DNA of 64,000 nucleotides from Antedon mediterranea (lineage: Eukaryota; Animalia; Echinodermata). The stretch covers positions 25,860,437 through 25,924,436 of the forward strand of contig NC_092672.1 in NCBI RefSeq assembly GCF_964355755.1. Reading direction: 5' to 3'. The translations under genes were made by a program, and so were the position numbers. Positions 1-44,448 of the stretch are shown here, piece by piece. Each line of letters begins with the position of its first letter. Within the stretch, counting starts at the first letter, position 1. The notes beneath the pieces were generated by a model that ran no database searches, was not told the DNA's origin, and saw only the letters and a program-made list of their open reading frames with translations.

Positions 1-2365
1 ATTCATGGGATAGATTTTCTATAAAGTACTGAATTTGAGTACGATTTAAATACTTAGAAGTCTCAAAGCCTAAATCATATAATGTTGGATTTTGTAAATG
101 TTCCCGCATTTTGAAACTCTTGTATTCATTCATATAGTGCTGAGGTCTGTGTAAAAACCTCGCAAAGGGATTTGAATTTTTTGACATATTAAGATATTTA
201 TATATTTTAAAATAACCAAACATTGATTCTGCTTGCGTTGCCGGATCGCGTAAAATGGTGATGTACTTTGTATCTGGTTTCATCACGGTATCCATTTCTT
301 TCCGATTGTATCGAACGTGGTTCACCAGCATATCGTACTTCTGATTAGGTTCAGCAAAACTCCTGTTAAATAATTCAATAATGCTGAACATATGACCATG
401 TCTTGGAATAACAAAACTTAAATTGTGCGAAAATCCAAACCTTTGAAAAATAGATGCCACTGTAGAACTTCCGGTTTTGTGAGTCTTCAAGAAAACAATT
501 TGCGTGGATGTCTTACATTTTTTGATAGTGTCTCCACCTTCAATAGGATCCCTCAATAAATGTTTCATAACCTGTTTGGAATTATTATTGCTATCCAGAC
601 GTTTTCGGACATTCTTCTGCTGAATATTACTGGAAATGACGTAATTAGTTTTTATTCCGTGACTTCTGCTGAAAATACAAATTGATCTTATACAGATTAA
701 TAGAATCATTAAATATTTACAACCGTATTTATTCGTCGGGCGTTTATTGTGTGAGAGGTTTTTAGAAGGGGAGAGGGGTGAGGTTACACACAATTGTGTG
801 GAGCGGCATTTATTAAGGACAAAAGAATAAATACGGACATTGACTAGTTAAATTTACTTGCACAATCCAACCTGCATGAGCGTTGGTGCAAATTGGTATT
901 TTAGGTTGTTTTCGTGGAAGATGCTATTATTAATTTCCTGGTAAAATATTTGTTTGTTTTGTATGTTTTGTATAATTATGGATGTATTATCCGATTTAAA
1001 GGAAGTTATTGAATTAATGAATAATTAGTTCACACAAATAGTCTACGCTACAGTTTTACAATTATAGGTAAGCCTTTTCAATCGAACATTCTTGACCACT
1101 GACGGATTGCTTTTATTTAAATAGAAATTTGAAAACGCATGCGCACAACTAACACTTTGATTCGCGCGAATACAACATTCGCCTTGTAAATGAAAGACTT
1201 GAAATGAAATAGTATTGGATTTAGTCATAAACATTCATTAATTAAAATCTTGCAAAATATAGAAGTATATAACCTAAAGATTGATTGAAACACCCATTCT
1301 ATACAGGTCACTCACATTCAAAATTCAAACACTAAACTAATGATATTCATAATACTTTTGTCACTGATAGACCCATTGCAGCTCCAACTGATAACAACAT
1401 AGCAATAATTATAATGTCAATGTCGGGTTATGATGGATACGTCATTGTTGATACTGACAGGAAATACTATTAATACGCTTTAAATTAGAGGATGAAGTAA
1501 ATGTCGCCGTGATTAGGAAGCCTGGTCGGGCATAGTTTGCGTTAGTCATAGTAGGTCTACATCGCGCAATCTTAATTTAAAGAGAGATTATTATAATATG
1601 CGCCAAGTTTATGTATTTATTTACACACACAATTTATTTTTTTTTAGTTTTTCATTGAATTGCAATTGTGTTGTTGTCATCGTGGTATATTTAATTTAGA
1701 TTATAGTATGATAACATAATTGCCTATCTTAAAATGTGCCCCACACACAGTATTTTTAACTTTTTATCTTGTATTTTTAATCTTTTATAATACTGCACGT
1801 TTTAAATTGTTGCAATATTGTTGTTTTAATATACCAAGCCAAGTGAATTTCCATTTTTATGGACAAATAAAATTTCTTGAATCTTGAATCTTGAATCACA
1901 TGAAACATCAACTAAAACTAGGTTAATCAATAGCCGTTAGCCTCCCAGTGTATTAATCGCATGCTTTTTTAACATATTCAATTCTATAGGTCTTTCTGAA
2001 TCCTACGAATAGAATAGAATAGACTGAGCAATAAAGTTGGAGTTGTTGTGTTGTGTGATAGAAAGAATCAGGCATTAAGCCTAATTACACTTTCGACGTA
2101 TGTCGAGACGGTGACAACAGTAATACTGTACAAACATATAAAAAAGTAGGCCTACCTATTGTAAAATAATCAATAATAATATAAAAATTCTAATGACTTG
2201 TTTTGAATAGTATTATAGAAATTAGTTGGTTACTTACTTTTGTAGATAGTTTGTAATCTGATGTGTGTTTTTACCACTTGGAAATTCGCTGTAATATACA
2301 ATTATTTCAAATAGCAAAACCACTAAGATGCACGGTATAACTTTCCACAAACGCACTTTTGACAT
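1..2365 (-). CDS. Galactose-3-O-sulfotransferase family protein (Gal3ST/cerebroside-sulfotransferase-like), 5' part; continues beyond the left edge
   Basis: Exon 1 is 2365-2238 (ATG; MSKVRLWKVIPCILVVLLFEIIVYYSEFP..., a type II signal anchor; GTAAGT donor, phase 2). Exon 2 is 668-1 (ttttcag acceptor, same phase, open to the window edge) and encodes IVFLKTHKTGSSTVASIFQRFG (5'-PAPS-binding motif), HVRYN and YITILRDPATQAESMFGYF (3'-PB motif), all typical of Gal3ST. Confidence 0.92.
1841..1897 (+). repeat. Probable 3' tail of a non-LTR retroelement
   Basis: AATAAA followed by short tandem (TCTTGAA)n, an end structure typical of L2/CR1-group elements. Confidence 0.35.
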
Positions 2366-3122
2366 ATCGCCTTACCGCTATTATATCGTTAGTTTTTTTA
2401 TTACAAAAGCTACTTTTAAATCAGAAGGACTACTTTTTTTTGTACCGGTAATCTATTAATTTGATTTCCTTAAAATGACTTGCGCCCTCGATATAACTTT
2501 TAAACCGGATAAATCATTATAATATAGAGGGCTCACATTCACATAGTATTGTAATCTTCTAGAGTAGCCTATCCTATAGACTTATCTTTACTCTTTAATT
2601 ATGAATCCATCTACATATACTAAAATTGACTTTTTTCTTAGACCTCACAGTACAACTAGTGTATAAAAGAGCTGTCTGAATCTGTTTTCTTTTTTGTTTA
2701 GGAGGATCGTGAAAAGAAACTGGTACTGGTACTGGTACTGGTTCAAATAACCGTCTCACAGAGACATCTGGTAGCCGTTGACTTAAGGTTGGCATTTGTA
2801 TGTGTTACTTTTAAATGTACAGTATGAGAGTGACTATTACCAAATTGCACAGTCACAAAACAATTTATAAAACAGTTCATATACAGTTAAAACATTGCTG
2901 GGAATTGTAAATTTGTGTTGAAGCAGGCTCCAATGAAGTTGCATCTGTAGTAAGTTGACTTTGTTGTAAAACTATCAAGTACTGATGGTATCTTCCGACC
3001 TCTTCGTTTACTTTGTGTTGTGTGAAAAGTAAGAATTTTTGTAGGATCTTCATTTTCTTTTCTAATTACATGTCCGATCCAGTTGATTTAATGACAGTTA
3101 ATTTAAATGCATTGTTACTTTA

Positions 3123-3301
3123 AGCGTGGTTCCCACTAGCGACGCAACGCAAGGACGTAACGCAACGCAAGTGAGTTGACCAATCACAAGCGATTGCTTA
3201 TTCGCTTGTGATTGCTAACTGTCTATAACTTCGCTTGTCATTGGTTAAAACGCTTGCGTTGCGTTTACGTCCTTGCGTTACGTTCTAGTGGGAACCAAGC
3301 T
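3123..3301. mobile_element. PIF/Harbinger (Tourist-like) MITE, family 1 copy a
   Basis: TIR agcgtggttcccactag / ctagtgggaaccaagct, internally palindromic, TTA target duplication on both sides (3120-3122, 3302-3304). Related copies at 24292 and 40190. Confidence 0.8.
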
Positions 3302-3884
3302 TTATTTACAACAACGATGGCTTTTACATATTTTACGTATGCCGATCCCCTGTACCATGCGACGTCATATTTTACAACGTATCTTATACGTTACGTAATC
3401 ATTCTCGATAATTAATCATGCATATCGATGAGTAACTTGCGCCATCATATTATCTCTCGTTGACATTCAATATGTATGAACATTGTTATCGTGAGGTAGC
3501 TGATATAACTCACTGCCATTTTGTATGTTAAATATATTAACATATACAACACAGTAGAACCCATCCTAAGGTACCTTTATTCAATGGAATTTCATTTAAT
3601 TTAATGTTATTTGTTCATGGTCAAACGCAGTAATAGTACATGGTTTGAAATTATTTTAGTTTGTTCATAAAAATACAAAAATGAATTAAACTAAACATTA
3701 AACCACATTTAAATTGTTTCCTTAATTAGAATTCTCGCGGGAAAAACAAAATCAAATATTCTAATAAACAATAATTTATCAAAAATTAAAAATAATTGGC
3801 TTAAAGAAATTGAGATTAAAAATGTAGCAGCCAAGGTTTCACCAATTCAAACCAGGATAATCATAATTATTATTAGAGGATCAT

Positions 3885-4318
3885 CAGGGCTAAACATTAC
3901 GACAGAGCAGCAGGGCTAAACATTACGACACTGAGCAGTAGGGCTAAACATTACGACAGAGCAGTAGGGCTAAACATTACGACAGAGAAGCAGGGCTAAA
4001 CATTACGACAGAGCAGTAGGGCTAAACATTACGACAGAGAAGCAGGCCTAAACATTACGAGAGAGAAGCAGGGCTAAACATTACGACAGAGTAGCAGGGT
4101 TAAACATTACGACAGAGCAGTAGGGCTAAACATTACGACAGAGCAGCAGGGCTAAACATTACGACAGAGCAGCAGGGCTAAACATTACGACAGAGCAGCA
4201 GGGCTAAACATTACGACAGAGCAGCAGGGCTAAACATTACGACAGAGCAGCAGGGCTAAACATTACGACAGAGCAGCAGGCCTAAACATTACGACAGAGC
4301 AGTAGGGCTAAACATTAC
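3885..4318. repeat. 26-bp minisatellite, about 16-17 copies
   Basis: Tandem unit cagggctaaacattacgacagagcag with minor variants. Confidence 0.95.
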
Positions 4319-4701: not shown

Positions 4702-6278
4702 AACGGTTCATAAAACGTGCTACTGTGTATTTTTGCTTCAAGTAGTCTGCTTATCATAATGTTATCAAAGTATTCATTTACAAGTTAAACGCCACCAATT
4801 TAAGCTCAAGTATAGGTACGGCACGCCATATGTGCCAACATGTTTTTACGAAGCAAACTCAAGTTTCGTACGTTTGAAGTACAATGGATTACGGTAACAT
4901 AGTTTACGTCACAGGTTGGTTTCGTTCTACCGCGTTTACCCGCACAGATTTGGGCATATTTATGCTAGACAGACCTAGAATACTACGCCGTAAAAAATGC
5001 AAAATATTATTTTGTTCGGCTGAATTTTTTTCGAATTAAATATGTATGGCATTGTCTATAAGATATTTCTTAATTTTTATTTTAAAAAAGTCGATATTTG
5101 CGGTTACAATTTAGTTGGTTAAGGCAAAGTGATCGAATCCTTACTTAACTATTTTAATCTAGTGAGATTACATTATCCTTTTGAAGTTGTAGGCCTATTA
5201 TGTATTGTGAGCTGCTATTTCTGCCCTACTTACAGAAAGGTCTTAACTATTGAGATTTTTGTCTTATTTGACTCTATCAGTTGAATTGAACATTTTATCC
5301 TAAAATATGCCTATAAATATGACATTTATAATACTAATTGGGCTTACCTGCAAACACCCCAAAAAATAATCTGACAAAAGGCCTCAACTAACAATTATTA
5401 CAGCAATTGTTCGCTTCACTTCCCAATAGCAAAGCCATTAATAGACATTGACTAATCAGATATCAGCAGTATGATGAATAATGAGCAAGAGAAAAGCTTC
5501 TTTTATATATTTTGTACATTTTAAAAAACTTTTCTAATCTAAATTATTAATTTATGATTTATTTCAACTAAAGTTACTAAATGTTTTGGCAAATTTTGAT
5601 AAAAAAAAATCAAAAAAAATAACTGCAAAAGTGCCCTGTTTTTGTCCCCGCCATTTTTAAGTACAAATTCATCGGAAAAGGGCATTATCTGCAATTTTAC
5701 ACACCACCCACCTAATAAAAACAAAAATAATAATTTAAAACCATATCAGATATTTTTTATTATTGTACTTTAAATAATAAAATACTACATGACATTTTGT
5801 AATGAACAACAAAATCACGTTTTGATCAATTAGTCAAAAGTAGCTTTTTGTAGAATTAAGCCCCCTTCTCAATGTAGGGCAGTAATATTTAAAACTTTAT
5901 CACATGACATGATCTAACAAACTTGTTGTACATGTTCTCTACTGTCAATAAATCGAAAAATGAACGCTTCCAATAAACACATTGGCGGTAACACTACTCC
6001 ATGCTTCATACTTGTGGTGGTAAACTATCAATCATTACGTTATACTGAAAGTTATATTCATTCAACACCCCTACTGAATAATGAACTCTTCTGATAACAC
6101 TATTATTATTGCGTATACTTTTGTGAAACTTTCATTCAAGGGGTGTGACTAGTGCGTCGAAGAGGCCAAGTTCAAACACTTCTTTCCTTTAGTTGAGTTG
6201 TAGGCCAGGTTCAGTAGTTAACTGCATTTCATATTATTGTTTTTGATTGAGTTATTTGTACCAATTTTGTTGTGAATC

Positions 6279-9200
6279 ATGCCGTCAAAGTTTATCAATA
6301 AGTTACGACCGAAGAAGAAGAAGGATAAAGATAAGCACAGAGGTAGTATGACGTCACTTGCTGAAACGTAAGTTCTTCATCATTTTTCTTTTAAATATTA
6401 ACGTACATTCCTTAGTTTCTTCTACGTCTCTATAGAAATAATACTTTCTATCCTATCTACATGACATACTGGGCCTACGTAATGGTGGAGTGAGTATGAC
6501 GGTGATGAAGATGACACGAGAAGTAGTGATGATGATAAGATAAATTGTAGACGATGAAAATAAAATTGATTATACATTTCTTCAACGGTTGATGCTCCTC
6601 AAACATGGACTCCATCCCGTTCAACTCTCTCCCCTAACCACCAACATAACTGTCCCTGTTCTTTATAATTCATTAAAATTACATTACGTAATCTTCTCTA
6701 ATTATTAGGCCTATTAGTATTTAGTATACCTTTGAATTCGTGTAGCTCTTAATCATGCAATGTTAAACTTTTTCTCTCAGCAAATTATTTTTGTATGCTT
6801 CTGAGTTTTACAAATCAGCACAATTTCAACATGCATTCAACAGTGTAACGTATTCGTATAGGCATTAGACTCAGTTATTTATTATAGTTATTATAATAGA
6901 CCTGTGAGTCCCAGTGTAAACGGAACTAGCTAGATGATGGGTGGGTAGCGATAGTCCGCAGTAGATTTATATAATAGACGGTAGTTTATACACAGATTTT
7001 TTAAACGAATTTGACGTATCGGTTGCGTCGAGTTTCCTATCTTTTCTCATCTGCAACATTTTGATAAAGTTACGTTACATATGACGTCATGTCCAATAGC
7101 GCAATTCGCGCCCTTGAAACAACTTATGACAAGTACCGAATATTGCGATGGATTCCATAATATGAAGGCCGTGAAATAAAAAAGTTAATAACAAAATACC
7201 TCAATTTTGACAATTATTATACCACAAAATGTAAAGAATTTAATATGTTTGCCACCTACGTGTTTGTATATTGTTGTTGTTAATCTGTGTTTTGGTTCCA
7301 TGACCTTAATAGTTGAATTAGGGACAATTCAAGCGTGTTCGTGTAATCTATCATATTATAATATATAGTAAAAGTTAACTTTCGTTACGGTTCAATCTGA
7401 CGTTATTTAATATGTGGCGTGCAAAACTATAATCTACTTGTAGGTACACGTGTAGTGAGGAGTGAGTCTGATGTCGATGACATGAGTAAGCCTACAACAA
7501 AACCATGTAATTAAAACAATTTCAAATTGCATGCTACTTGAATTAATTAGATTGATTTTGTATGTAACTTACTACAGTAGTCGTATTTTTGTACGGTAAT
7601 TATTTTAACATTTCATTTTTGTTAGACTTTAATTAAAATTTGCTTCGTTACCTTCGTTAGAAAAGTCACTTAAAAGACACTTAAACGTGCGTTTCTGTTA
7701 AAATTAAACCAATACATTTATATCGATACTTTAGTACTTTACCATATTCACTCTAATATCAGACTTTTCTCTACCCACGGATACCAACATCTTCCTGGTT
7801 ATTGCTCGGCTCTCCCTTGAGTTCGTTGTTCCGTCATAGACGCATTGGATAATTTTTTTTGATAGGTTCGATTTCGATTCCTATTTATAGAATTGTATTA
7901 ATTAGCCAGGTTTCAAGTTTGTTTATATTTCACCATAATCTTTTGCCAGCACTTACTATTAATGATTCTACAGTAGTGACAGTATGCGGCTGCGAACTGC
8001 GGTGTTTATTCGCGAAAAGTACGACCGCTTACGCTAATTGGTCCTTTTGTATAGCGAAAGTTATTTGAGACGTTCCACAGCTAAAATATTCTTATTTGTA
8101 TATATAGTAAAGCTCTGTCTACACTATCAAACTTTATATGACAAAACATGTGATGTGCCCATTGACATGATGATGCCATGGGCATTTTAGGCACATCAAA
8201 CTTAATTTTGCTAAAACATGTTTGATAGTGTAGACAGGGCTTTGGAATCTTACGAGAGATTTTCAATGTTTTTTTCTTATTTCATTATTTCATTTATACT
8301 AACGATATTAACCTTCTAAAAATTATGCTAATAATTAATATATTGACAACGTTTGTTCGACCGGGTAGTTTATTGAACCTTCACTTGACTATGGTATATC
8401 AATTTGTATGATTATTAGGATTATTTTATTCTAATTATCCTAAGGTTGTTAAATTTAAAGCTTCAATAAGATGTGTAACAAACCAAAATGTAAAACTAAA
8501 AAGACGGAATATCGTTACAGTATTACGTTTCCTAAAAATAAATACATAGTGTTTTTAAACTTGTTAGATACCGTTTTATAAGGTATCGTGTGATTAAGTT
8601 TATTGCAATTTCCTTGTAAAAACTCATGCGAACTCGTATGCATTACGACTGAATATGGCGAATTGCCAGCACAACAGTTTCCGCTATCGTTTGTCAAACT
8701 TGTTATCATAATCTATGGATGTCATGAAAACGTCCGACTTGATATAAGTTCTACAAATGGGTCATATTTTTAATTAAATTAATTCTCTATCATTTCTAAC
8801 AGCAGTATTATTCGCTTACTCATGTGCTAATTACGCCGTCAGACTATTATACGCAAATGTTACAGTTGGCGGGCGTTAGTAGATTTTTTGGATAATATGG
8901 TTATATACAGATGGTCGGATCAGTGATTATGATTTGATTTGTCAAGTTACATACGTTGCTTGTCGATTTCTTGCTTTATAACTTACATTCAATTTTCGTA
9001 GAGTAGGCTATGTCTGAAAATATGGGACGAAGTGTGCTGCCTTAACTTGATCTATAATTTTTATTATATTATATAATAATTTAAAATAATGAATTATTGT
9101 AAACCAAAATATATGCATACATTAATAAATGAATAAAGAAATACCCATAAAAGAAAAAAAAAGGTATAAGACCAATATTATTGGCAGGAGACACGATACT

Positions 9201-12200
9201 GCGGACTTGTTTATCGCCATCTATATGATGAGAAAACGCACTACGTGTATCAAGTATGCTTTGCGTCCTAGCTTTATACGAATCTAATAAAAACAACTTT
9301 ATGTGCAGCACATAGGCTCATAGTTTAAAAATAACTTACAGCAATGAGATTGAGAACATTATGAAATAGGCCCTTAAGTTTTAATAGTAGATAAAAATCA
9401 ACCAAAACGGAAGAAGAACACGGTGTCGTCTGCAACAGACCTTAATCTAATGCCACTTGTCACCAGGATATCCGGCATATAGGTCTACATCAGCCAACCT
9501 TTATTGTGATTTGTTAAACTTCCTGTAAAATGTCCAAAACCCTAAAAATATTCACCTACTGTAGTGGAATTTATGTTTCCTGTGTATTTTCCAAATTTCC
9601 TACCACGATTCTAACCATAATATTCCTTTTTTTTTCTAAAAGACAAAAACAAGTTCAATTCTGTTTTCATGCTGTTTAGACTAGAGTAGAAATTTCCAAA
9701 AACAAATCTGACTTTTGTATGCACACGTTGGTATAATAGATGAATGTCACCCGCCTCCCTCCCGACACTTATCAACCCACAATATAAAATGTAGAACTTC
9801 TCATAAATGAATGAAACAAGAAATACACAAAAAGTAGCCGTCTTATTAAAATTTAATAACGACGTGACGTGTACAAACTGTATGTAGCCTAATTGTGGTT
9901 TTCATTTTAACCCCACACACCTGAGTAGGGTGCCGTTATACTGCTACTTATCCATACTAAGTTATAAATATTCTCACAAAATATTGAATGAAACCCTCCC
10001 TTAAAACCATTAACAAGTCTGAAACGATTATTGTAAGATTCACCATTTTCTCTGTCTTTCGTATCAATTTCGACGACAAAAAGAAGGCAATAACGTACGC
10101 AAACAGTGTATACGCGCGAAGAACGCACTTTTTAATTCTAATATTCATCATACCTCGAAAATAAAACTACAGTATTGATAATAAATAAATATACTTATGT
10201 ACCAATTGGGAAACTCACAAGTAAAATAAACAAAAGTAAATAAATTCACAACATAATTTTCATTTATTATAAGCTACTTTTATAGCTACTAATACATATT
10301 TTGAAAATAAAAGGGGTCACCTTCCGATTTCTAAAAATAAGGTTTATGCCCCTATATGGTTGTTTTTTCTTTAGTCCTATATGGTTTGAAACAAATAGCC
10401 TGTCACTTTATATTAACATGGATACATTATTTAATAATTCATCTAATCATCTGATCTAATAAGGTAGATGAGTTTTGAAATAGAACTTCGTCATTACTTA
10501 ATAATTGGTAATAATCATAACAATCAAAATAACATTAATTTATAAATAATTATTACAATATCACCAAAGCCGTCTTTCGACGACTGGTTTATGCAAGGTC
10601 TATTAGATTAAAAAAGAAATGAATTCGGAAATTACACTGTTGACTGATGGCTACTGTTTAGTATAAAATCTGTGATTGAAATGTATTTGTTACAATCGTG
10701 TTTAGAGTTTAACCATGTATTTTTACTCGTAAACAGTAATATAACTACAGTCTAGTACTTTCCTAAGAATGAACTTTAGAATACTAAGTTCTTAGTAGAC
10801 AACGTTTGTTCCTGTGTAAGTTGTTCAAAATGTCGTCAAAAGTAATAAAAACGATTTGTTGTACACAATTAGAAAAAACATTATTAATAAAATAACGTAT
10901 AATTTTGTAATAGGGTCCTGACCGCTCTAGAGGTACTTTGTGGCTGCCGCTATTTGACATTGATGATGAGTGCACGGAAGCTCTTTGACGTCTGTTAAAT
11001 CTACTTCAATTAGTGAATTGTGACACAGAAAAGTATAAAAAAAAAGATTTTATTACATATGTATTTTAAGATTGTGACGAATTAATCATCTTAAAGTCAC
11101 ATGACCTGTATTGTACGGAGCAATGCCCTTTTATTGGAATAACCCGATGAGTGTTTCATAAATAATAAATCATAAACATTTTTAAGAAAAGAGAAAATTC
11201 TTGGAGAACAAATTAAGACCTTATTACAAAATTCGTAACATAATGTTTGTTGACACACTATAGTTATATGCGCACTGTGAACGCCGCATGTTTCTGGACG
11301 GTAACCTGTTGATATCGAGAGGCCTTACCTTTTAGTATCTTATCTAAATTGTAAGGTCTTTTCCAAATTCCTTGATCAAACCTCCTGATCAACTACTATT
11401 TGTTGAACGTTTAAACATTGGGATATTTATTACCACTTTCTGCTCCGGTATTTTTCCTCTAAGGCCAGTTTAGCGTGGGAAAATTAGGTCATGTTATAAA
11501 GTATTTAATGTAGAGTTCTGGGCATACTTCAGCAGGGGTATGATACAGAGGCGTGTTGTCTTTCAGATGATTTAAAGTGCAACGAATGAGCGCTTTAATT
11601 CATGGGTCATATTTCTGCATGACATGACCTTCAGATACTGTATTAATATGATGAGGCATATTGCATTAAATAGTATAACAGGGGCTTTATTATTTTACTG
11701 TCGTACCTGTCATTTTAACTGATTGAAGTCATATTAATGTTATCATAGTCTTATCTTTTAAGTAAAAATGTTAAATTCTGTAAAATGTAAACTATTTCAA
11801 TGAATTAAACGCCTGTTTGGAAACTGTCAATGAATATTATGATATTATTTTTTAATAATTTATAGGTAAAAACTGTGTTTTAAACTATTTAAAGGTATTG
11901 CTAGGTATATACTATCTATTTCATTGATCTTTTTTTTGTTTATTTAATCCAAGGCAATGATAGCATTGCTTAAAACAAATTGTCTTCCAAATTTACCCTA
12001 TTTCCAATGCTTTTTTCAGCCATCTTCGTACGTAACCTATATAATTGTTGTCAATTTACATGACGATATTGTCGTCTTCTAAATAATCTTTGTAAATAAT
12101 TACAAAAATGAAGAAGAATGAATCATTCGAAACTTATTATAAGAACCAAACAATTTTGTATAAACTCACAATGTCGGTAAATATTTTATTCGTATAATAA

Positions 12201-15200
12201 TGTATTTAACTACCGTGGAGTAGCTTTGCATAGTTGAGTAATTGGTTAGATCTGTACTCTGGCATAAGTTTGTATTTATACACCTGTATATATGTAAGTA
12301 ATTCTCGAGCGGGACCTATAGATCAATAGCCTGACGTTTATACTGATTATTTTCTTTAAAAATTTTATGAACTTATGGGGGACACAGATTTAAAAAATGT
12401 GTTTGTTATTTCATTTCTTCCCCACGAACCCATCGCAAGTATACTGGGTCAATTTTCTAGCTCATATAATATGTGCGAAGGTTTATGACCCACATTCCGT
12501 CGTGCATCCGATATTTCCATTAAAACGTCGATCAATGGAATGTGCAATATTCTCCCGTGAATATTCGATTGGGGCCCATCCACAGGTGGCTTCTAGACCA
12601 TAAGGTCTAAATAATTAGGCTATAGTTTAGATAATATGTTAACATTAATTACTTGATTCCAGAAAATTAATAAAGTATTTCTCGTCCAATAAATAGATTG
12701 CCGATTGAAATAAAAGTACGATTTTTTATTAACGTCTTGATTAAGGTAAAGAATTCCTTAACATTAACAAATGTTAAACATTTTATTAATTATGTGTACT
12801 TTTCTGTATAATTATTATAGGCCTACCTTTATACCAATGCCATTTTAAAATAAAACAGATTAATGCATACAGAACATACTCCGACCCGATTTACAGTATC
12901 CTTACTAGAACTATATAATTTAAATATCGATATCTTTAGCTTTAAAAACAAAATTATTATTATTTTATTTCCAAAAATACAATCAATAGGCCACCAGATG
13001 TGGCAACAATACAAACAAGGTTCTCAAAACTTATTATTGTTCGAATAACAACATTTTTTTTTTATATCTATCGATACAGTAGCTATCAATTTATAGAACA
13101 CACTTTTTACACTCAAACATTGTGGTATAACTTTGCACTGTCGGATGTACTTCTGAAACTCTCGTGAAGTATCAATCGGGAGATAGATCGGAGTTTTGAC
13201 GACATACGAACTCGTTTTGTTTGTAAAATCCGATGTATTGGGACAAAAAATGATTTAGTTTGAACCCCAAATGGGCAATCATCAATCGTTGACTTTTGAG
13301 TTCGTAACTGTTAAAATGTCCTTCTACTGGAACCAAATTACCACGTGACATTGTACTGTTTATAATAATCACTTTTTTAATGGAATGTTTACTATAGAAA
13401 TGGAAACAAAAAATTCCAGTGTCGATAATCCAACAAATTGTGAAGATATAACAGTGTGTGTAAGTTCTATTGATTTATGATCCAGTTATGTAGGCGATGG
13501 GTGGGTGTAATATTATATTCCTTTATAATAAATTTCCTACGAGTGCTTTTTGACAGTGACTGACCTTGTAAACATATTCTGTTGAGGAATTTCAAGTATG
13601 ACGGGGATAGAGATTCAATATAATACGACGTATTAAACGATTATGAAAGTATTCAGCTAATTCAATTGTGTTTATAGTTTATCAATAGATAGTTACAATT
13701 TATTGCCTATTGCTTTACACGATAATTATTGCCTCAAAGCGATGTTTCTTTTGAAGTTTTAACTGAAGCTATGGCGGGCAAAGTGTGCCTTAAACGATTA
13801 TGAAATTATTCATCTAGTTAAAAATGTGTTTATAGTTTTATCAATAGATAGCGACAGTTTATTTTGCCTATCACTAAACCACAATAATTTCCTTCCATGT
13901 TTCACGTTTAAAAGTTTTAACGAAAGGTATGGCATGTAAAGCATATGCCTAAACAAGTAAAGAGGACGATACTACACCATCAACAATAAGTAAAGTATGT
14001 GTGTTCATTCATCATAACACACATTCAGGATGTGTAGATCATCAATAACGACCTCACACACTCACCATCGAGCAACATCCTCAAACAAAGAAACACTAGG
14101 CGAATTTGTTCGCGCGCGCAAATCCAACGTTTCTTCGCAGAAATAAATATCGCGCAACCCTTTTCCACAACAGCGATTAGCTGCGATTTCAATGTTCATC
14201 AAATCAAAATAAACATTTTTTTCTTGAAAAGCAGAAAAGATAGCCTTTAGATTCGCATTCATGAGTGCTCATGAACGCGTCATAGCTCATTTCCTGAGCT
14301 CTGATAGGTTGCGCAATTTTCCTCTTCGCAAAAAGTAAAAACAATTTAAAGCGAAAAATTCAAGGGCCTAGAATTCGTCGCAAAGAGAGGGATTTGGAAG
14401 GTTGAAAATGAATACGCATGCGTATAAGGCGACTCTTTCGATTCACACAAAAAAATTTGCCTACTGTAAACATTTTGGCACACATGGCGTTTACAGACGA
14501 GAATGAAAACGCTGACTGGGGGCGCTCGTAATACTAACAGCATCAAAAAAGAGACTTCGGGAAAGTATAGAGTTAGATTAGGACACAGTTTGTGTTTACC
14601 ATATCCGCCATGACGACCTTGCACACTTTAGAAGAGAAAACAATCAATCATAACTGTCTTCACCTCAGGTCAGGGTGTGTGTGTACCATCCATCACAATG
14701 ACCTCACCCTCCCAAGGTATAGATAAGCAATACCTTACCCCTGAGGTAATATATTCCCCGTTTAGTAGCAATTCATTAGTCATTAGTGTTAGCATAAGGG
14801 CAATGTATCGTCATCCATAACACCAACATAATGTACACTTATGCGGAAGGCAAAGACCTATCAATTTATATAAATATGTAGGCCTACTGCCTCATGAGGA
14901 TGTACAGTCATTCTAGGATGTGATTTACTTTACGGTTTCCGAAATAAATATATATATAATGATTGATTGACAATACACAAAACATTTAAAAAATACACAT
15001 TGATGTGATGTGAATGATCATTCACAAACTAAAAAGGATATAATTATTATTATAACTATTTGTAACTAAAATTATTGTTTCAGTTTTGGGTTATGCTGGC
15101 AGCATACATTATATCAAGTTTGAGGCTAGGTAGCTGCTGCCTTGAGATTTTCAAATTATGACTTTTCCCCCAACCCTCAATAATCATTGTTTCGTGCCGG

Positions 15201-18200
15201 CCAACAGGGTCAAAACGTCCTGCTGTGAAATTTCCCTAATTCAGTACTTACTCGCCAATATTTTTAACGTTGTTGTCGCCTAGGATTTTGAAGTTTTCAA
15301 GTAAAAAAAACAACAAAACTTTAAGATTTTATATAAAAAGCGTCAGATTTTAGGTGCGTAAGAATCACGCCATATGCGCGGGACTTAACATGTAGGAGTA
15401 TATTGTAGAGGACCACTTCAATGCCCTAATTGTTTTGATTCTTATTTAAGTTTATACTTAAGTATTTATACGCAAGAATAAGAATAGTGAATAAATGTGT
15501 ACAATACTATTCAGTATCACACAGATCTATTAACGGTTTATTTTAAGTAGACCTCTTATGTGGTGTTGTGTTGTTGTAAAATACTTCGAATAACATTTTC
15601 CTGATTTCAATTGAATGAAATAAATCAATAACTGATTTCTTGGTATTGAGATTTTTATCTTACTATAAAACATTTTTTTTTTTTAAATACATAAATATTA
15701 TTTATGTATTTTTTAATCCACTATTATAGTCATGGCGTTGACGCCTAAATAAATAAAACGAATGAACCTCGAAATGTGGTTGCTGTTGATGGTAGCCACG
15801 TGTGACTGAACAGTTTAACTTGCGCAGATGGCGTTTCACTCGACTCGATGCGTAGTCGAGTGGCGCGCCGTAACATATTTCAATTTCAATAAATTCTTGT
15901 TATATCTAAGAGACGAAGTCAAGAAAAACTGTTTTCCTATGCCTCATGGTACCACACTTATAGAAAAAGAAACTCTCCCCACATGAACTCCCACTCTCTT
16001 AATGTAAAGGAGTAAAACCAACTCTTTTAGAGTAATAGTCACTCTTTTTAAGAGTGATAGTAAGGACCACTATTAAAAGAGTGAAACCACTCTTTGAAAA
16101 GAGTGAATCGCTCAAATGTTTTAAAGTGTGGTTTTCACTCTTTCAAGAATGATTCTAATACCACTCTTCAAAATCATTTAAAAGTTTCACTCTAAACAAA
16201 TAGAGACATTTTCACTCATTTACAATAAGAGAGTATAGCGTGGACTTGTGAAAATGTACACATTTTGCAGTTAATTCAATGACATTCAAATCACAAACTA
16301 AGGGTATACAAGTGAAACTAACTTCTGAAGAATCAAATAACAGCCATTTTAAAAACATAAACAGAAACTAGTATTAGAAATTAACACATATTCTTTCCTA
16401 ATCACGTGGTAGATATAACATATCTACCACGTGATTTGGAAATGGTGTACAGTAGGCCTATCATCGACAGTAGTCCGAATGTGTAAAGGAAGCATAGATA
16501 ATCTAAATGTCAGTTACTGTTAAAAGGAAATGTTTATCGTGATAGAGTTCATGTGCAGTAATAAAATGCTGTTGTTTTATAAATTTACAATCGGCCATCT
16601 TGTTAAATAGGCCTAGACATTATATTGTTCATTTGCTAGGAAAGCGCCTGATTTGACAGGTCACGACTGTTTTTATGTTAACCCCAAAAACGAAATTATG
16701 TACAATCATGTATTGTTGTAGAACTGTTATTTCTGTGGTTATTGTTTCTTTTTACGTTCTGTCTCTGAATGAATGTCTCATTGCCAAAACAGTAGGCCTA
16801 CCACTTCGTAATCCCATAACGGTGGTGTAGGCCTGTAAGACGTAACACCCTTTCTCGTCCTGAGAAAGACGTCCTAATATTGATTTGATGTTAAATCGGT
16901 TGATGGAGTGATGTTAGTTTTAATGCAGCAGGCGGTAAAGGAAGATAAACAAGTACGATTATTTATAAAATAACCAAATCATGTGCATTTAAGAAACGTG
17001 AATCGGAACATGTTTATACACAAGTTGTATTTATAATTGTTATTTAAACAATCTTTTAACTTACAAGTTACATAAAAGTTATTATTTGTTTTAGGCAAAC
17101 ACAGACCCCTTCTGAAGTAGAGACCCGCAAGGAATATATAGAAGCATCCATTTTGAGCAAAGTCAATCTTGATCCTCTAAATGAAAAAGACGATTCCAAC
17201 ACCTTCAAAAGTAACATCGAAAATTACATTGGCACGGTGAAAGTTCCAGTAGGGGCAGTTCAGGTACAAGTTAACGGTAGTCATGCAAATGGAAAATACA
17301 CAGTCCCATTGGCAACAACAGAAACGTCTTTAGTCGGAACCTGCAACAGAGGATGTCAGTTGATCAATATGTGCGGTGGTGTTGAGTCAGTAGTCATCAA
17401 GAAACAAGTCCAGAGTGCGCCGATCTTTCACTTTGAAAGTATTCGTTTAGCTGTGAAGTTTAATGAATGGCTAGGCCTACCAGCGACATTTGAGTCTGTC
17501 AAAACCAATGCAATTGCCGTTGTTGAAGAGGCTGTTCTTGTCAAACTCGAACACTCTGTGCATGGCAACTGTGTGTACTCTCGTTGGTACTTCGATACTG
17601 GAGAAGCAGTTGGTCAGAATATCTCTACTTATGCTACAAAGGAAGCTATGGAGTCAATCTTAAAAGAAGCACCCGTCCAACCGAGTAGCTGGGACCTTGA
17701 CGTCGGACTTGCTAGGAACAGACAAGCGGCAACTAGTCTGATGATAGACGGACGTGGTGTCTATGTAACTGGAGAAGTCGTTTGCCCAAAGGAGAAGGTA
17801 GAAGAGATACTACACGTGTCAGGTAAGTGAAACCAAATAAGTAATTATTTTTTATCGAACATTTCTTACTACGGAATTTATCTAGAATTTGTGTAGGCCT
17901 ATTTACGTTTGTAACTTTGTGATTACACATATTTATATCATGTACTGCACTAACATTATTTAATTTGTAAATTAAGAGATTATGATTGTCTTATGTCACC
18001 CAAAAGTTACATAAACAAAATGTAATGGTCATTACGCCTATGCATGGTTTATTATAACTTATCATTTTGTATTTGACATTTAAAATAAATGTCAATTAAG
18101 TCGACGTTCTATTTCGATTTTGAAATAGAAAACCCATTATTAAGTGTGTTTACTAAAATGGCAACAAGTCTATGAGATTAGTTTTCTTTCTATCAGTGTT

Positions 18201-21200
18201 CATATATAATTGCGTAAGAGAAGGTCATCGCTGCATCAGGAAACACTGTAATTTTCATCAATTTAACTTCTGTGAAGAAGTTATAAGCAAATTGTATTAT
18301 TTGCATGGAAGTCGACCCCTGGGAACACTTGTTAGTCCTCGTACTCTGTAATAGTATCTACATTGTGGTTATTATAAAATATATTTATAAATGTCGAGAC
18401 ACCTTCAGTACGCACTCGATTTCTTTAGTCCTGCACATATGGCACAATTTTATCCAAATTATGTAACGCAGTGTCACTATGCAGGTCCATATATAAATTG
18501 TAATGGTACCGGTACGCTACTTCTGTAGCCTATGATACAGACGTTACATGTTATGCACTGTTTTACAGAATTTGCTGATGATACTGGACAAAGATATTGG
18601 GGTAAATGCGCTCCATGGGCAAGGGAAGCTTAGGCATAGACGAAGTTAAACATTTAGAATAGAAAATTCAACATAGAAAGTTATAAGAGTTAACTAATTA
18701 TTATTATGCTCTACATGTGTATTGTAATGGTACATTCAAGCTTTAAGGCGCAAATTATTGCATTTTAGTATTAAAGTCAAAATGGCTTCCGTTATTGTAA
18801 ACGATCTTGATTGCGCCATAATCAATTCTAATCAGCAGAATAATTTGGCAGGGTTTAGGTAGCCATTTTTCATCGAAATATAGATTGAATCATGTATACA
18901 GTTGTTGTTATCTTTACAATTGCAGCCGAGAAGCTGGCGTCTTTTTCAAGAGAGTCGAGAACATGGCAACTAATCTCTCATACCGCAGGTATGTTATTTT
19001 CTATAAAAATTTCTTTCAAAGCGTTTGATTACTTAATCCGTTTAATTCAAACGTATGCGTAATCGAATCGTATTGGCAAAGATTCTATACTGAAAATTAT
19101 AATACTTTGGCATGCCGTTATAGACAACCATTGGCCCATTTCATGGCAAGAATACATCTTTCTGTTCCTGAGAGTGCATCCGGATTTTTGTTATAGACTT
19201 TTTCTAATAGTGCAGGGGCGTAAATGTGGACTACTCATTTTAGTATCATAAATAAATAGGTACAGTTATAAGCGAGTGTCTTATCTTGTCAGTGGTGGGT
19301 GGGTGGTTGTATGACTGACGCTTATTTTAACCTCAGAAAGAAATCTATTATTTTATCCAAAGTTCGGCAGTATAAAATAAGCTACGTTTCACTTCATGTA
19401 GCTTTATACATCCGATACAATACTAACATTTCCGAGAATTTTATAAGTATGTTCAATCGGTACGCAGAACCTAGGAATTTGAGTTGGTGTGTTCGAACTG
19501 TTTACAAAATATACCGCCCTCTTTAGTTAGCATAATTTCATTCGCTTTCTTATACCGTCAGATTACTAGTTTACTATTACTAGGAATCGTTATATTATTA
19601 AATCATTGATGCCATTCATTTAATCTAGACTTATCTTTCTTGCATGATGAAATTATGATCAATGTAGCATGATCTGCAATTTCGCATGCTATCTTCTCCG
19701 ACTTTCTCTTTGTTTTGGTTCCTTTCCTCTTAATTCCCCTGTGGTATGATTTCATTATTACTTAACTGATTCATTACTCATGCACTGTCTATGCACATAT
19801 TTATAGGCTCAGGAATAATTGATAAAGTTATAAAACACTAATCTCTGTAGAAGATGATCATTGCCCGCCGCGTTGAACCAATTGCCGCGGCGTTGAACCG
19901 ATTGAAAGTTTTAATCCTTCGTCTGGTACAATGAGTCACATGGGTGTTTTGCATCGAGAGATATCGATTAAAAATGCTCTGTTTAACAAACCCGAAATTT
20001 GTACTATTTATAATGTGACTATACCGCCACATTTATTATAAATCTTGTTAATGGTGTAAGGGAGGGGTTTATTTTGTTTACTGGATTGTCCACATGTATT
20101 CCGTCAGAATTAAGACTTTCTGAAGAATAAGGTATATAGTAATGTGCATTATGATAGCCAGTGCGCCTACTCGCCCTGCGTTTTAGTACTTAATGTAACA
20201 CAAGCAACACTCGCACATGTCAATAAATAACACTATGCGTAACAATCTAGATCCAGTATTATCAACATGGCCTTATCTAGGTCCGTCATTGAAAACGTGA
20301 CCTTATTCAGGTCCGTAATAACGCAATGAACTCATCTAGGTATGTTATCTTAGTAGGATATTAAAATCGATTTACTTATATTATATTAGGATGTCTATTT
20401 GAAAAGCGTGATTTTCTTGCAAATCGTGCGTTCTTAATTTTCTCCCTCAGTATTATGACATACAATAACATTTAGTTAACAACAGTTTTCAATTTATTTA
20501 GCATTATCCAGAGTAATATGAGTCATTAGTTATACTCGTATCCGATTGTCCCAAAATGTTATAACCATCATATTTATGTCAACATACAAGATGAATAACG
20601 ATGTTACTATGTGAAAAATGAAAGGTGATTCATACACCTTGACTTTAGATGCTGGGAATACTAACACATTATATTTGATCTATTTTAGATGATATCTAAC
20701 AGGATAGTACATTTTATTTGAATTGAAATTAATATTTAATAACTAAACTTTTGTTTATTTTATGTTTGCTGCTAATAATAACACATCTGAATAAATTTTA
20801 AAGTGGCGGATTCCATCCGATATCTAGATTTCCCAGTAAAAATATGCAATACAGCATGTAGCCTAGTATCAGAGGCCATTAACTGATCCTTAACCTCACC
20901 ATGGCACATGTGATACACATGTGATACTGTATTACCGAATTGGTCTAAGATAGAGTAAACATGTTGTCGTATGTGAGATGTGAGAGATAGGCATACATCA
21001 GTAGTATTACCTTGTCCCTGATACGTTGGGAGATAAGCAGGCATTCAAATGAAAACCAATACTTAAACTTAGTTGGCAGCCATTACATTCAGATCGACTT
21101 ATTTCAGGGTTAACCATTTTAAATATTATACATCATAGGCCTATCTAAAATTGTAATAGTGCCTTTACAATTATCTGTATTTGTCCATTATATGGGGAAA

Positions 21201-22964
21201 TAATGCTACTAATTTAAAAACAGAAATGTAGGAAAATCCGCTTCTTTAATTTATTTTTACAATTTTATTTATTTTGTTGGTTTACGTTTTACTAACATTT
21301 TACCGCAAAGCTATTACTAACGTTGGTTCTTAGTTTTGGGCTTCTCATCTTCCAAAGCGCCCTCACATACAGTTTCTTCAAACATTCATCTCGAAGGCTC
21401 GACATACCAATCTGCCAGGGTGATCGCAGCAATACTGGTTGCCAGTGGGCTGGATGCGGCCGCCGTAGTTGAATCGCACGTCGGGATCTCTGATATGAAG
21501 CTAACCAAGAACGGTGACCTTCGAGTTATTGTTACTCTGCCATCGCTGATGATAGGGACAACTGGAGGAGGAACCAAGCTACCAAGCCAACAGGTAAAGT
21601 TAATACATTTTTGGAAAACCTGTCCATTAATGGGGCTTCATCTGTACATAATAAGGGCCGTGAGGACACTGTTCCCAAAACCTCAATAGGCAAAGTGGCA
21701 AACATATTGATATCCACGCCTAAGGCGCAAAACAATGACGTACACACAACCCAAGTAATTTGGCCAATCACAGGCGACAGTTTGATGATCATTCGTTTGT
21801 GATTGGTGGAATTAGTGATACGTACGTTCTGGTATACTAGTGGTACTGTAATACTAAACTCATCTTAACGTGAGAATTCGAGGGCTGCTTTAATGCTGCA
21901 AAGAATCCTGTAATAACGTTACTCTTTGATTGCAAAATAATTTTCCACTAGAAACAATTAATTTATTGAAATGTTTCAACATACAGCACCCAATATTAAA
22001 TGTCACGCTATAATATTCTTGGATCTTCTTTAACTAATGCAAATCATAGATATCATAATCTTTGGCGTTTGAAGTAATTTTCAAGGACAATCAGAAAAGT
22101 AGATTCCAAGAAGATAATTAATAACCATCAACTTATTTATATAATAAAGATTTAAGACGTTCATATTATATGCATTTCCTGAACTGCTGGAATAGATACT
22201 GCTGAGTCATTGGCAAAAAATACGATATTGAATATACCAGATTCCCTATAGGGTACGAGGTTCATATTTGGACAACATATTTTGAAATTACAGCTATTCG
22301 TTGGTTTCGATATTTTCGAAATTCGGCTAAATCAAACCAATATCAGCAAAGATAGTAGCGGGGATATAAAATGTTTGCTATCACAGCAATATGCAAAATG
22401 TTTAATTTGTGTTTTTCATGACGTGCCACTCGAATACAGCTGTCCAGTTAAAATACATATATAATATGTGGGCGCTCAGAAGCATTATGAGCATGCACAA
22501 AATGTATGTTAGACGATTAACCGGCTTGGTAGTCGCATTGGCATATCGCAAAAACAGGAGGTCGCCACTATCTACTTAACTAGCACCTTCCACTGAATTA
22601 ACATAACGATTACAAAAAATATTTTTTATAGGCATGTCTTCAGATTATTGACCTCCCGGAAGAGAAAAGTAGAGAAGCATTTGCAGAGGTCGTCCTGGCT
22701 GCAGTGTTAGGTGGTGAAATAGGTATGTGTGCTGCAATGATTAGCCACCATTTTGTAAACAAGAAAAAACGAACTGAGTCAGAAACACCATCTACATCTT
22801 TGCCAAACGGAAATTCGGTCATCGAAGAAGATAAAGCTGGTGAAGCAGCCGCCGAAAAGCTCAATGGCGATGCCACTCCGAGTGAACAAGTCAATGGTGA
22901 CTCGGCACCAGGAGAAGTTAAAGAGGAGACCAAAAAAGAAGATAAAAAAGACCAAAGCAACTGA
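6279..22964 (+). CDS. Divergent soluble class I HMG-CoA reductase-like protein (about 469 aa, no membrane/sterol-sensing domain)
   Basis: Exons: 6279-6367 (MPSKFINKLRPKKKKDK...; GTAAGT, phase 2), 17095-17822, 18926-18988, 21397-21593 (in-frame alternative acceptors at 21334 and 21373), 22632-22964 (TGA). All junctions are GT-AG and phase-compatible. HMGR motifs: NIENYIGTVKVPVG, VPLATTE, TGEAVGQN, GRG, GLDAAAVVES, VTLPSLMIGTTGGGT-LPSQQACL, AEVVLAAVLGGE. Exon 1 rests on phase and donor quality across a 10.7 kb intron and is the least certain part. Confidence 0.88.
8111..8241. mobile_element. Palindromic MITE
   Basis: 21-bp TIR agctctgtctacactatcaaa / tttgatagtgtagacagggct (1 mismatch), internal tgatgtgcc/ggcacatca symmetry, TAA on the 5' flank. 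Confidence 0.7.
13633..13954. repeat. Diverged tandem duplication, about 157-bp unit x2
   Basis: ttaaacgattatgaaa...tgtgtttatagttt(t)atcaatagatag...aagttttaac...tatggc...tgcct is repeated at 13633 and about 13790. Confidence 0.8.
15993..16234. mobile_element. MITE with internal CACTCTT/AAGAGTG repeats
   Basis: TIR actctcttaatgtaaa / tttacaataagagagt and multiple internal cactctt...aagagtg mini-hairpins. A related fragment lies at about 33810-33932. Confidence 0.65.
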
Positions 22965-24291
22965 ATAGATACTAGTGAAACAATATGAATGTAAATCAGA
23001 AATCTCATTACAATATTTTAAATAACGTTACTGATTTAGTTAATGCTGCATGTTGAAACTTGTACACTCAACCCTCTTCGTTTAGTCATTGGTGGATAAA
23101 CCGAATAATGCTACGTGTATCAAATTCCAGTTAAAGTAACGTGGGCCAAAGTACGCTCACTATCAAATTACACAGGTAAACCCGTATTAATTTTTTCAAT
23201 GCAAAAGTGAAATTTATTTCACGTTACAATCCCAAAAATATAATCTAATTTGGTACAGTACAGTTTCTTGTAAATGTAAAAATGAATGAATTTGGCCAAC
23301 CGACAAAAGTGAAACAACACGTTGATAAGTGGGCGCTTTCAAAATCAGTACCAATCAAGGCTGAAATGAGAAACTGAAATAACATAGTTACAAAATAATT
23401 ATTGGGGGCGCTAGACAAGATTGTTTGTTCGTCAACCAATACAGCAGCTCCCTCTATTTATGAAATGTATAAGTTCTGATTCGTCCCTTCCTCAATAGTT
23501 TATTAGATAAAACGATAAAACTACGACTACAATATTATTCAGAGGGCACACTACGAATCAAAAAAACACAAATCTATCCAAGGTACATCCCTGTTCAGAA
23601 GACACTTTCTGTTAAAATGAAAACAAAAGGCAATATACAAATATATATTTTGTAACACTACAGGGGACACTTTCATCGTTCCACCGTCTAATACTGTGCA
23701 GCAGCAAATCAAAAACAAATCTTACCTGCTTAACTTTTCATTAAATTGACGATTGGGTATTATTATCAATTTGCATGAATTTATAGACCAAATATTGAAA
23801 CGATTATTGTTATCAAATTGTTAAGTAGGCCTATTAAACGTATTTTTTTTTATATAGGCCCAATATAACTATATAAGTTTGTATAATATTATATGTTAAT
23901 TAGTAGATATTATATCCGTATAGTGGTAAAAATATCGGACTTTTACCGATATATTATATTAAACAATGTATATACAATTATTACAAATATAATCTGATGT
24001 TAATTGAATGTTTGTTTATGACGCGTCGAAGTATAGTAGTATTCAGGGTAGTTTTTATGAAGTAATAATTCCTAAAATGTACTTTACGTTTTCACAAATC
24101 ACCACGTGCATACGTAGCTGTCTAGTAAATACATCATTCTGCGCACGCTTAGAAACATATGAACCGCGCATATTTGCCACCACGTAGACGCACGGCGTGT
24201 TGTAAAAACGAAAGCTTGCTATTATATTAAAAAAAAACTATGATGAACACCTACTCGAGTTGACGTGTGCTTGGTGATGAGGTGTGATTAA

Positions 24292-40001: not shown

Positions 40002-40189
40002 ATCAATGTCAATTTTAATAATGTATATATAATATTTATTTATGACTATTTCTCGGATTTCTGCCGAGTTTGCAATTAATTATTTATTAATGTAATTAAA
40101 CTACAACATTTTAAATTTTAAAAAGGCATTGTCTTTAAATGCACATAAACATAGGCCTATCAATTAATGTGTTGTTTTTTTGTTTGTAA

Positions 40190-44343: not shown

Positions 44344-44448
44344 TCGAAAATAATTTGTTTATTTATTAAATGATTAAAAGAGTTGATATTTATTACAGTA
44401 TAGTTTAAAAAAATTTATTTCCAATAAGCTGTTTGTATAACCTTTGCA

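Follow-up and report, generated by a model that had tools for sequence, protein, structure and literature searches.

The window analysed here, a stretch of 64,000 nt from Antedon mediterranea, carries a five-exon gene that NCBI names HMG-CoA reductase 1-like (XP_071945928/30/31). Its features, in window coordinates, are:

6137..6278, + strand: 5′ UTR; the RNA-like contig begins at 6137, with 0 differences
6279..6367, + strand: coding part of exon 1; splice joint 6367-17095
6368..17094, + strand: intron 1, 10,727 bp, GT..AG, phase 2; joint 6367-17095
17095..17822, + strand: exon 2, 728 bp, PF00368 positions 2-231; joints 6367-17095 and 17822-18926
18926..18988, + strand: exon 3, 63 bp; joints 17822-18926 and 18988-21397
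21397..21593, + strand: exon 4, with an RNA-supported acceptor; joints 18988-21397 and 21593-22632
22632..22964, + strand: coding part of exon 5; joint 21593-22632
22965..23515, + strand: 3′ UTR, at least this long; the RNA-like contig runs on to 23515

The five exons read as open frames and are separated by four GT..AG introns. Contigs of an RNA-like run span the four intron joints and those of a DNA-like run span 0/4; this transcript evidence comes from a single study, and the run was taken as RNA from its behaviour, not being listed as RNA. Three acceptors of intron 3, with exon 4 starting at 21334, 21358 or 21397, correspond to the NCBI isoforms X1, X2 and X3 (490, 482 and 469 aa, letter-identical), and it is the 21397 acceptor (469 aa) that is found in RNA and that aligns to homologues without an insertion. 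Two exon-like pieces inside intron 1 (7445-7485 and 13398-13459) were discarded, since the frame is broken in 3/3 combinations and no RNA joint among those listed reaches them. Neighbouring genes are animal-type, the two right-hand ones being exon-split, and the genomic integration that the earlier note read from the four GT-AG introns and flanking genes is borne out.

The transcript contig from 6137 shows an in-frame stop directly 5′ of the ATG and no ATG further upstream, and, of the joints listed, just one of GT..AG type leads into exon 2, from exon 1. The N-terminus so encoded is short and lysine-rich (10 of its first 35 residues are K or R) and carries no membrane segment. On the Kyte-Doolittle scale no N-terminal hydrophobic window appears in the 490-aa form, the top 19-residue windows (mean up to 1.96) lying at residues 321 and 400, within the catalytic domain. 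Hydropathy, translation and the RNA joints listed gave no sterol-sensing membrane domain, in line with the earlier claim that a hydrophobic N-terminal domain is missing, and upstream membrane-domain exons, for which an RNA check had been proposed, did not turn up among those joints. At the other end lies an acidic tail of low confidence, and the model's C-terminal helix likewise scores low (pLDDT ~45 at residues 401-410).

The gene is real and spliced, and its product is soluble with a class-I HMGR fold. As had been claimed, over half of the catalytic domain lies in the 728-bp exon (PF00368 positions 2-231 of 368). TIGR00533 matches with E 4.6e-42 against E 7.8e-07 for TIGR00532, which marks the gene as class-I-derived, and the class II traits (no cis-loop, best match to TIGR00532) are absent; scanned one by one, each exon falls far under the TIGR00533 whole-protein cut-off. 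6HR7 (Methanothermococcus) is the best PDB match in sequence (E 8e-56) as well as in fold (TM 0.62-0.72), and matches in the ESM Atlas are bacterial HMGR-family clusters only. Seven of the seven residues of the animal HMGCR HMG pocket (S684, D690, K691, K692, K735, N755 and H866) differ in the Antedon protein. Introns map to the equivalents of human codons 725 and 748 (both in phase 1) and after 815 (phase 0). If the introns of human HMGCR fall after 521 and 574, in 627, after 662, 719, 766 and 819, and in 871, as we take them to, none of these positions would coincide.

A class-I-HMGR-derived fatty acyl-CoA reductase, FcrA, was described by Grossi et al. 2025 (PMC11948995), who report for the assayed FcrA (Pb-FcrA) NADPH-dependent reduction of C14+ acyl-CoA but not of HMG-CoA. 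The definition given there includes a monophyletic clade apart from class I HMGR, with Glu559, Lys691, Asp767 and His866 conserved; the marks are an acidic residue at 684, a non-Lys, generally small residue at 735 and a bulky one at 862, and a tetramer model shows an elongated alkyl pocket. Lys795 as printed in that text was taken as Lys735, the pocket Lys of PMC7503714, from which the roles of HMGR residues used below also come. The Antedon protein carries all three marks, D232 at the S684 position (17699, exon 2), E282 at K735 (exon 3) and F400 at L862 (exon 5), although E282 is not small and the crinoid paralogues have S or H in its place. All 7 full-length crinoid paralogues have E or D at 684 and F at 862; canonical HMGR rows with letters at these positions show S684 in 18/19, K735 in 16/16 and L862 in 14/14.

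In a hand-picked tree of 50 rows, the 8 crinoid rows form one group (100/100) within a 43-row FcrA-type clade (100/100), with the 7 canonical HMGR rows outside, and this placement is unchanged in trees of 82, 396 and 439 rows. Uniting crinoids with canonical eukaryotic HMGR lowers the log-likelihood by 70.8 and is rejected (AU p=0.0198), which speaks against the nesting within metazoan HMGCR that a tree had been expected to probe; a tardigrade supplies the only metazoan canonical HMGCR in these trees, and the archaeal outgroup loci (2/30 through the domain filter, on a very long branch) were left out. Assayed FcrA proteins are represented by proxies, PF25653-bearing rows with Trp862, to which the crinoids are not sister; PF25653 presumably corresponds to the Lad domain of FcrA. 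Fusions to FadD, ACP, acyl-CoA-binding or PF25653 domains occur in clade members, and among 60 neighbour genes scanned near bacterial FcrA-type genes none was a mevalonate-pathway enzyme. Judged by sequence, the Antedon gene thus belongs to the FcrA-type clade and is not an animal HMGCR. The resemblance to soluble bacterial class I HMGRs stressed in the earlier note is real as far as raw identity goes (over ~310 columns, 38% to Vibrio rows vs 30% to the tardigrade HMGCR), but the kin are FcrA-type; its listed motifs are all present, LPSQQACL being weak as a marker, given a close counterpart in human HMGR.

What that note overlooked is the loss of Lys691, His866 and the NADPH-phosphate site. 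In the Antedon copy the catalytic set Glu559/Lys691/Asp767/His866 reads E/R/D/K. In exon 2, E106 (codon 17321, human E559) is kept, as are the CoA-site residues T112, N114 and R115; the same exon has S137 for R590 (17414), V173/E174/E175 for the NADPH site S626/R627/F628 (from 17522) and N238/R239/Q240 for D690/K691/K692 (R239 at 17720). Exon 4 has Q298 for H752, R301 for N755 and the kept D313 (D767), and in exon 5 catalytic H866 is lost to K404 (codon 22764) and R871 to S409. G656, N658, the GxN and glycine-rich cofactor motifs and the dimer motif are also kept. Across 364 non-crinoid FcrA-like rows, the Antedon residue is found at R590 in 0/364, at S626 in 0/363, at K691 in 0/363, at H866 and R871 in 0/328 each, and at N755 in 1/342. 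All four catalytic residues are kept in 7/7 full-length crinoid paralogues, and the NADPH-phosphate site largely so. With E/R/D/K at the catalytic positions, the Antedon copy is FcrA-derived but does not fit the published description of a working FcrA.

Despite these losses, the Antedon copy is the most conserved crinoid family member, with 91.4% identity to its Anneissia orthologue, which has identical residue losses, where the second clear pair of orthologues reaches 81.9%; the coding variants listed for the RNA-like run are synonymous in 5/5 cases. Lost catalytic residues combined with high conservation indicate that this copy is likely a pseudo-enzyme, and likely a lipid binder rather than a reductase. 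An enzyme of the same family and origin with changed chemistry, switched to NADH by the acidic residues in its NADPH-phosphate site and acting through a rebuilt active site on another substrate, e.g. an aldehyde or alcohol reduced or oxidised, seems to us rather unlikely. Retention of E559, D767, G656 and N658, together with a conservative K691R change that leaves the position basic, makes altered catalysis possible, and the kept GxN and glycine-rich cofactor motifs agree with it, as does the fact that every change is common to both species in the most conserved family member. Class II HMGRs favour NADH where their 2′ site is acidic. Against an altered enzyme stands the joint alteration of at least 9 near-invariant pocket and cofactor residues, including 2/4 catalytic ones, with K691 present in 363/363 non-crinoid FcrA-like rows.

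Treated in the earlier note as a single gene, the Antedon copy proves to belong to an expanded crinoid gene family, with 11 loci across two feather stars, Antedon and Anneissia, from two families. Crinoid proteins are the best 9 in the top 120 of 3411 matches and the best 5 in the top 150 of 1648, and no other named animal occurs in either set or in a further 53 matches, so that in animals the FcrA-type family has so far been seen in feather stars only. The main text of PMC11948995 (figures and supplement aside) names no animal, echinoderm or crinoid FcrA, and a literature search, with most subscription journals outside its reach, found no paper on the FcrA-type family in crinoids. No crinoid HMGCR was among 10 matches of a long-protein search, which is weak evidence either way. 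Paralogue N-termini are presequence-like in composition, from which the lysine-rich end of the Antedon copy differs. Outside crinoids the highest identities are to Vibrio-type rows, 38% for the Antedon copy and 46-48% for paralogue P0003.

Acquisition of the crinoid family by horizontal transfer is likely. As to the source proposed earlier, a Vibrio-like bacterium, grouping crinoids with Vibrio/Colwellia is rejected (p=0.019), but a broader grouping with 13 bacterial rows of Vibrio type withstands the test (p=0.297), so a bacterial donor is possible. In the best tree, crinoids fall with the amoebozoan Clastostelium (P0201) and eukaryote-like rows (96/88; 94 and 95 in larger trees). Gly686 occurs in 7/9 crinoid and 10/12 protist-like vs 8/403 other rows, and a His after the ES motif in 8/9 and 9/12 vs 7/399. 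Since a Vibrio donor is rejected and protists are closest in the best tree, transfer from bacterium to animal is one of three possible routes. As for a viral carrier, 0/43 pattern matches in viral contigs were confirmed and phage records gave no match.

Those same protist affinities would also fit vertical descent, with an FcrA-type gene in the amoebozoan and opisthokont ancestor lost in every animal line except crinoids. Crinoids with the holozoan-type row P0187 (EukProt Clim_evm48s147), which we take to be Corallochytrium, are not rejected (p=0.34), which makes vertical inheritance possible. A precedent exists in sponges, where ancestral presence and loss were proposed for a second, class II HMGR (PMC4784904). 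We nevertheless find such descent rather improbable: by our own count on the standard animal tree the gene would have had to be lost independently some nine times or more, no other named animal appears among the matches listed, over half of the domain sits in one exon, and P0187 is not the crinoid sister in the 50-row tree. A working mevalonate-pathway class I HMGR taken straight from a Vibrio-like bacterium has the top raw identities outside crinoids and the 13-row bacterial grouping in its favor, yet is very hard to reconcile with the alteration of S684, K735, D690, K692 and R590, all HMG-binding, with the Vibrio/Colwellia rejection, or with membership of a clade whose assayed FcrA does not reduce HMG-CoA (main text of PMC11948995). 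A truncated, fast-evolving HMGCR of the animal's own, to which the NCBI label and the single metazoan canonical HMGCR in the trees lend something, is scarcely credible given the AU result, its log-likelihood deficit and the FcrA marks, and bacterial contamination equally so, since the gene has four spliced introns, sits on a contig of 39 Mb among animal genes and has an orthologue in another species.

Our preferred reading, of moderate confidence, is that of a soluble, spliced FcrA-type family member, likely horizontally transferred, and likely a dead pseudo-enzyme predicted to bind acyl-CoA or fatty acid. One acquisition from a protist or bacterial source would have preceded the Antedonidae/Comatulidae split, with intron gain and duplication following. 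Intact paralogues would carry out NADPH-driven reduction of acyl-CoA to alcohol; mitochondria are their probable site, given N-termini that resemble presequences (by composition only). Given that Grossi et al. (PMC11948995) report smaller pockets for 12/59 of the FcrA-clade proteins that they modelled, mainly eukaryotic ones, the crinoid substrate may not be a long-chain acyl-CoA. The Antedon copy would derive from the same subfamily, exchanging the presequence for a lysine-rich N-terminus, keeping the dimer motif, CoA-site residues and FcrA-type pocket, and now serving as a ligand binder or regulator outside mitochondria; we speculate that the arginines gained at positions 691 and 755 would suit carboxylate binding.

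More tentatively, and with more doubt than belief, we envisage uptake of a microbial, possibly protist, FcrA-type gene by feather stars only, a mitochondrial alcohol pathway independent of the animal FAR enzymes, and one duplicate turned strongly conserved acyl-CoA/fatty-acid sensor on the HMGR fold; if true, this would be the first FcrA family in an animal and the first pseudo-enzyme with that fold. An enzyme type not described until 2025 is here extended to animals, and as many as 11 crinoid genes that bear the label HMG-CoA reductase probably do not encode mevalonate enzymes. The lineage-specific expansion holds intact and dead copies that can be compared by assay. It lends itself to testing whether a gene passed from a microbe to a deuterostome or instead survived extreme differential loss, and it hints at lipid or natural-product chemistry peculiar to crinoids.

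Canonical class I HMGR (the human 1DQ8 series; 6HR7) has in common with the Antedon protein the PF00368/TIGR00533 fold with its cis-loop, whereas the latter has no sterol-sensing domain, has swapped HMG-binding residues and falls in a separate clade. In demosponges and Capsaspora a second, prokaryote-like HMGR is known (PMC4784904), a homologue retained alongside the canonical gene within a single animal group, as may be the case in crinoids, but it is class II by description and the Antedon gene is class-I-derived. Nearest of all are the protist FcrA-like proteins (Clastostelium P0201, Clim_evm48s147 and ACBP fusions), with which crinoids have Gly686 and the post-ES His in common; three of them end in SKL or AKL, a peroxisomal-type signal, and others bear an acyl-CoA-binding domain, neither of which is found in crinoid proteins, and all keep the catalytic residues, unlike the Antedon copy. 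With FcrA itself the Antedon gene agrees in fold, clade, the three pocket marks and solubility, and the crinoid paralogues keep its four catalytic residues. It differs from FcrA in being animal-hosted and intron-bearing and in having no N-terminal alkyl-carrier domain, and it has lost Lys691, His866 and Asn755 as well as the residues of the NADPH-phosphate site, all of them retained in FcrA.

The protein was compared with FcrA, a fatty acyl-CoA reductase type derived from class I HMGR (Grossi et al. 2025, PMC11948995), and with canonical HMGR in an alignment of 396 rows (11 crinoid, 19 canonical and 364 FcrA-like, with 2 class-II-like rows removed). At the three FcrA marker sites (684, 735 and 862, human numbering) the window protein carries D, E and F, while canonical rows carry S in 18 of 19, K in all 16 that have letters there and L in 14 of 14. 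In a tree of 50 rows chosen by hand, from which the near-duplicate or truncated P0058, P0062 and P0175 were omitted, the crinoid rows unite (100/100) and nest in the FcrA-type clade (100/100). Grouping crinoids with canonical eukaryotic HMGR was rejected (p-AU 0.0198) in a set whose sole metazoan HMGCR is from a tardigrade. Judged by its residues and position, the window gene is FcrA-type and not HMGR.

The gene and its surroundings are laid out as follows.

Features of the window
2-571, minus strand: coding exon of a galactose-3-O-sulfotransferase, continuing beyond the window start
about 3120-3305 and 8108-8243: short interspersed elements of very high copy (summed contig depth in the tens of thousands), the first palindromic and MITE-like in look
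3885-4318: minisatellite, 26 bp x 16.6 copies
6279-6367, plus strand: window gene exon 1 (coding), open frame, GT..AG
17095-17822, plus strand: exon 2, open frame, GT..AG
18926-18988, plus strand: exon 3, open frame, GT..AG
21334, 21358 or 21397 to 21593, plus strand: exon 4, with three alternative acceptors of intron 3
22632-22964, plus strand: exon 5 (coding), open frame
31293-31919: minisatellite, 39 bp x 16.1 copies
36800-47250 and 50900-56700, plus strand: matrixin (MMP) exons from two genes in tandem, followed by a gene for a DOMON/copper monooxygenase (DBH/MOXD1-like)

The five-exon model with four GT..AG introns proposed in the earlier note is real: it translates without a stop, its three exon-4 starts match NCBI isoforms XP_071945928, 30 and 31 exactly, and joined contigs of X1, a run guessed to be RNA, span all four introns, with none of the exon joints found in the DNA-like run X2. 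An Antedon mediterranea protein encoded on a 39-Mb contig matches exon 2 at 100% identity. The intron-3 acceptor used in X1 is 21397, the shortest form only; two more in NCBI models, within 21334-21396, would lengthen the active-site region by 21 or 13 residues, and Anneissia has three isoforms too. The transcript contig begins at 6137 and has an in-frame stop ahead of the ATG, so a membrane domain cannot attach via exon 1, and no joint among those listed enters exon 2 from anywhere but exon 1; the claimed lack of an N-terminal membrane domain therefore stands, as do the flanking animal genes. Bacterial contamination is ruled out by the spliced introns, the 39-Mb contig and the animal-type neighbours.

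The gene belongs to a family forming a single clade of 11 crinoid rows (support 100), with five loci in Antedon (the window gene, P0060, P0061, P0064 and truncated P0175) and six in Anneissia japonica (the orthologue P0002/P0056, P0003, P0058, truncated P0062, P0063 and P0065), members of different comatulid families. P0175 also lacks the cis-loop catalytic motif and is possibly a pseudogene or mis-modelled. P0063, P0064 and P0065 form a second subfamily that keeps the four catalytic residues; its Arg at 692 and its Gln at 752 hint that the substrate may differ. Crinoids were the best 9 among the best 120 of 3411 matches (7996 candidates) in one search and the best 5 among the best 150 of 1648 in a search over every 50%-identity cluster; the named remainder of the former were bacteria, and no further animals appeared among the named rows of either set.

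In human numbering (via PDB alignment; residue roles as given in PMC7503714), the window protein keeps E559 and D767, as well as N567 and R568 of the CoA site, where S565 is Thr. Replaced are K691 (Arg), H866 (Lys), N755 (Arg), H752 (Gln), R590 (Ser), D690 (Asn) and K692 (Gln), along with the NADPH-site residues S626, R627, F628 and R871 (Val, Glu, Glu and Ser). The window residue occurs among FcrA-like rows in 0/363 at 691, 0/328 at 866, 0/328 at 871 and 1/342 at 755. All four catalytic residues are kept in 7/7 full-length crinoid paralogues; the Anneissia orthologue shares the changes of the window protein, to which it is 91.4% identical (81.9% for the other clear orthologue pair). The stem of this pair is long (1.09) and its tips very short (0.058 and 0.033): a burst of change followed duplication, and strong constraint came next. 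Of the coding variants listed for X1, 5/5 leave the protein unchanged. An AlphaFold model has a class I fold, with 6HR7 as best match (18-row alignment, mean pLDDT 67). The window gene probably encodes a pseudo-enzyme; an active enzyme with changed function, the main rival, is considerably less likely.

As to origin, the best tree groups crinoids with the amoebozoan Clastostelium recurvatum, two relatives and acyl-CoA-binding-domain fusions (96/88; 94 with 82 rows, 95 with 439 rows). The first 396-row FastTree differs, placing crinoids as sister to a 278-row group of protist-type rows and bacteria alike. Gly686 is found in 7/9 crinoid, 10/12 protist-type and 8/403 other rows, and His after ES in 8/9, 9/12 and 7/399, opposed by four columns in which crinoids side with the remaining rows in having the common state. 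The fusions to PF00887 (loci L130, L172, L186 and L120; proteins P0024, P0043, P0176 and P0179) are probably eukaryotic: three of the four loci are single genes with untranslated flanks, like eukaryotic transcripts, and L186 has partial open frames on each side. Eukaryotic members of the FcrA clade are already mentioned in PMC11948995. Three protist-type proteins (P0201, P0188 and P0178) have SKL or AKL at the C-terminus, a peroxisomal-type targeting signal seen in 0/247 other protein rows, which suggests that some protists may use FcrA in a peroxisomal ether-lipid route.

Horizontal transfer into crinoids, as the earlier note had proposed, is fairly probable, but the Vibrio relation did not survive: crinoids with the Vibrio/Colwellia clade were rejected (AU p 0.019), and protist-type rows are closest in the best tree. 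Groupings with the holozoan-type row P0187 (AU p 0.34) and with 13 Vibrio-type bacterial rows (AU p 0.297), both chosen after the tree was seen, were not rejected, and eukaryotic rows may be drawn together by long-branch attraction. A protist donor is somewhat likelier than a bacterial one. Inheritance from a common ancestor with many losses has a precedent in sponges, whose second HMGR is assigned to class II in PMC4784904, and is here rather unlikely.

Around 28 bacterial FcrA-like loci, 60 of the 100 flanking genes were scanned; UbiA-like, PEP-dikinase-like, FadD-like and CarS-like genes were among these 60, whereas enzymes of the mevalonate pathway were absent. A run of reductase, UbiA-like and PEP-dikinase-like genes, at times with DUF3419 or CarS-like, recurs in several phyla (downstream of the reductase at L011, L058, L064, L067, L076 and others). 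L080, in a genome labelled Halobacteriales (G001), carries a bacterial-type FcrA-like gene that nests among bacteria, as well as another HMGR that is distant from it, possibly by transfer or binning error.

On balance, and with modest confidence, we favour an account in which the intact paralogues would be NADPH-dependent acyl-CoA reductases and the window gene a dead duplicate retained to bind an acyl-CoA or fatty acid or to serve in regulation. Paralogue N-termini are basic, acid-poor and rich in Ser/Thr (4-8 K/R and 0-2 D/E per 35 residues) and look like mitochondrial presequences, in place of which the window protein has a lysine run. The animal copy appears to be new: FcrA itself is published, yet our literature search found no paper on an animal one. 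The clade that holds the crinoid proteins also contains FadD-ACP fusions and PF25653 proteins with Trp862, as in the assayed FcrA enzymes.
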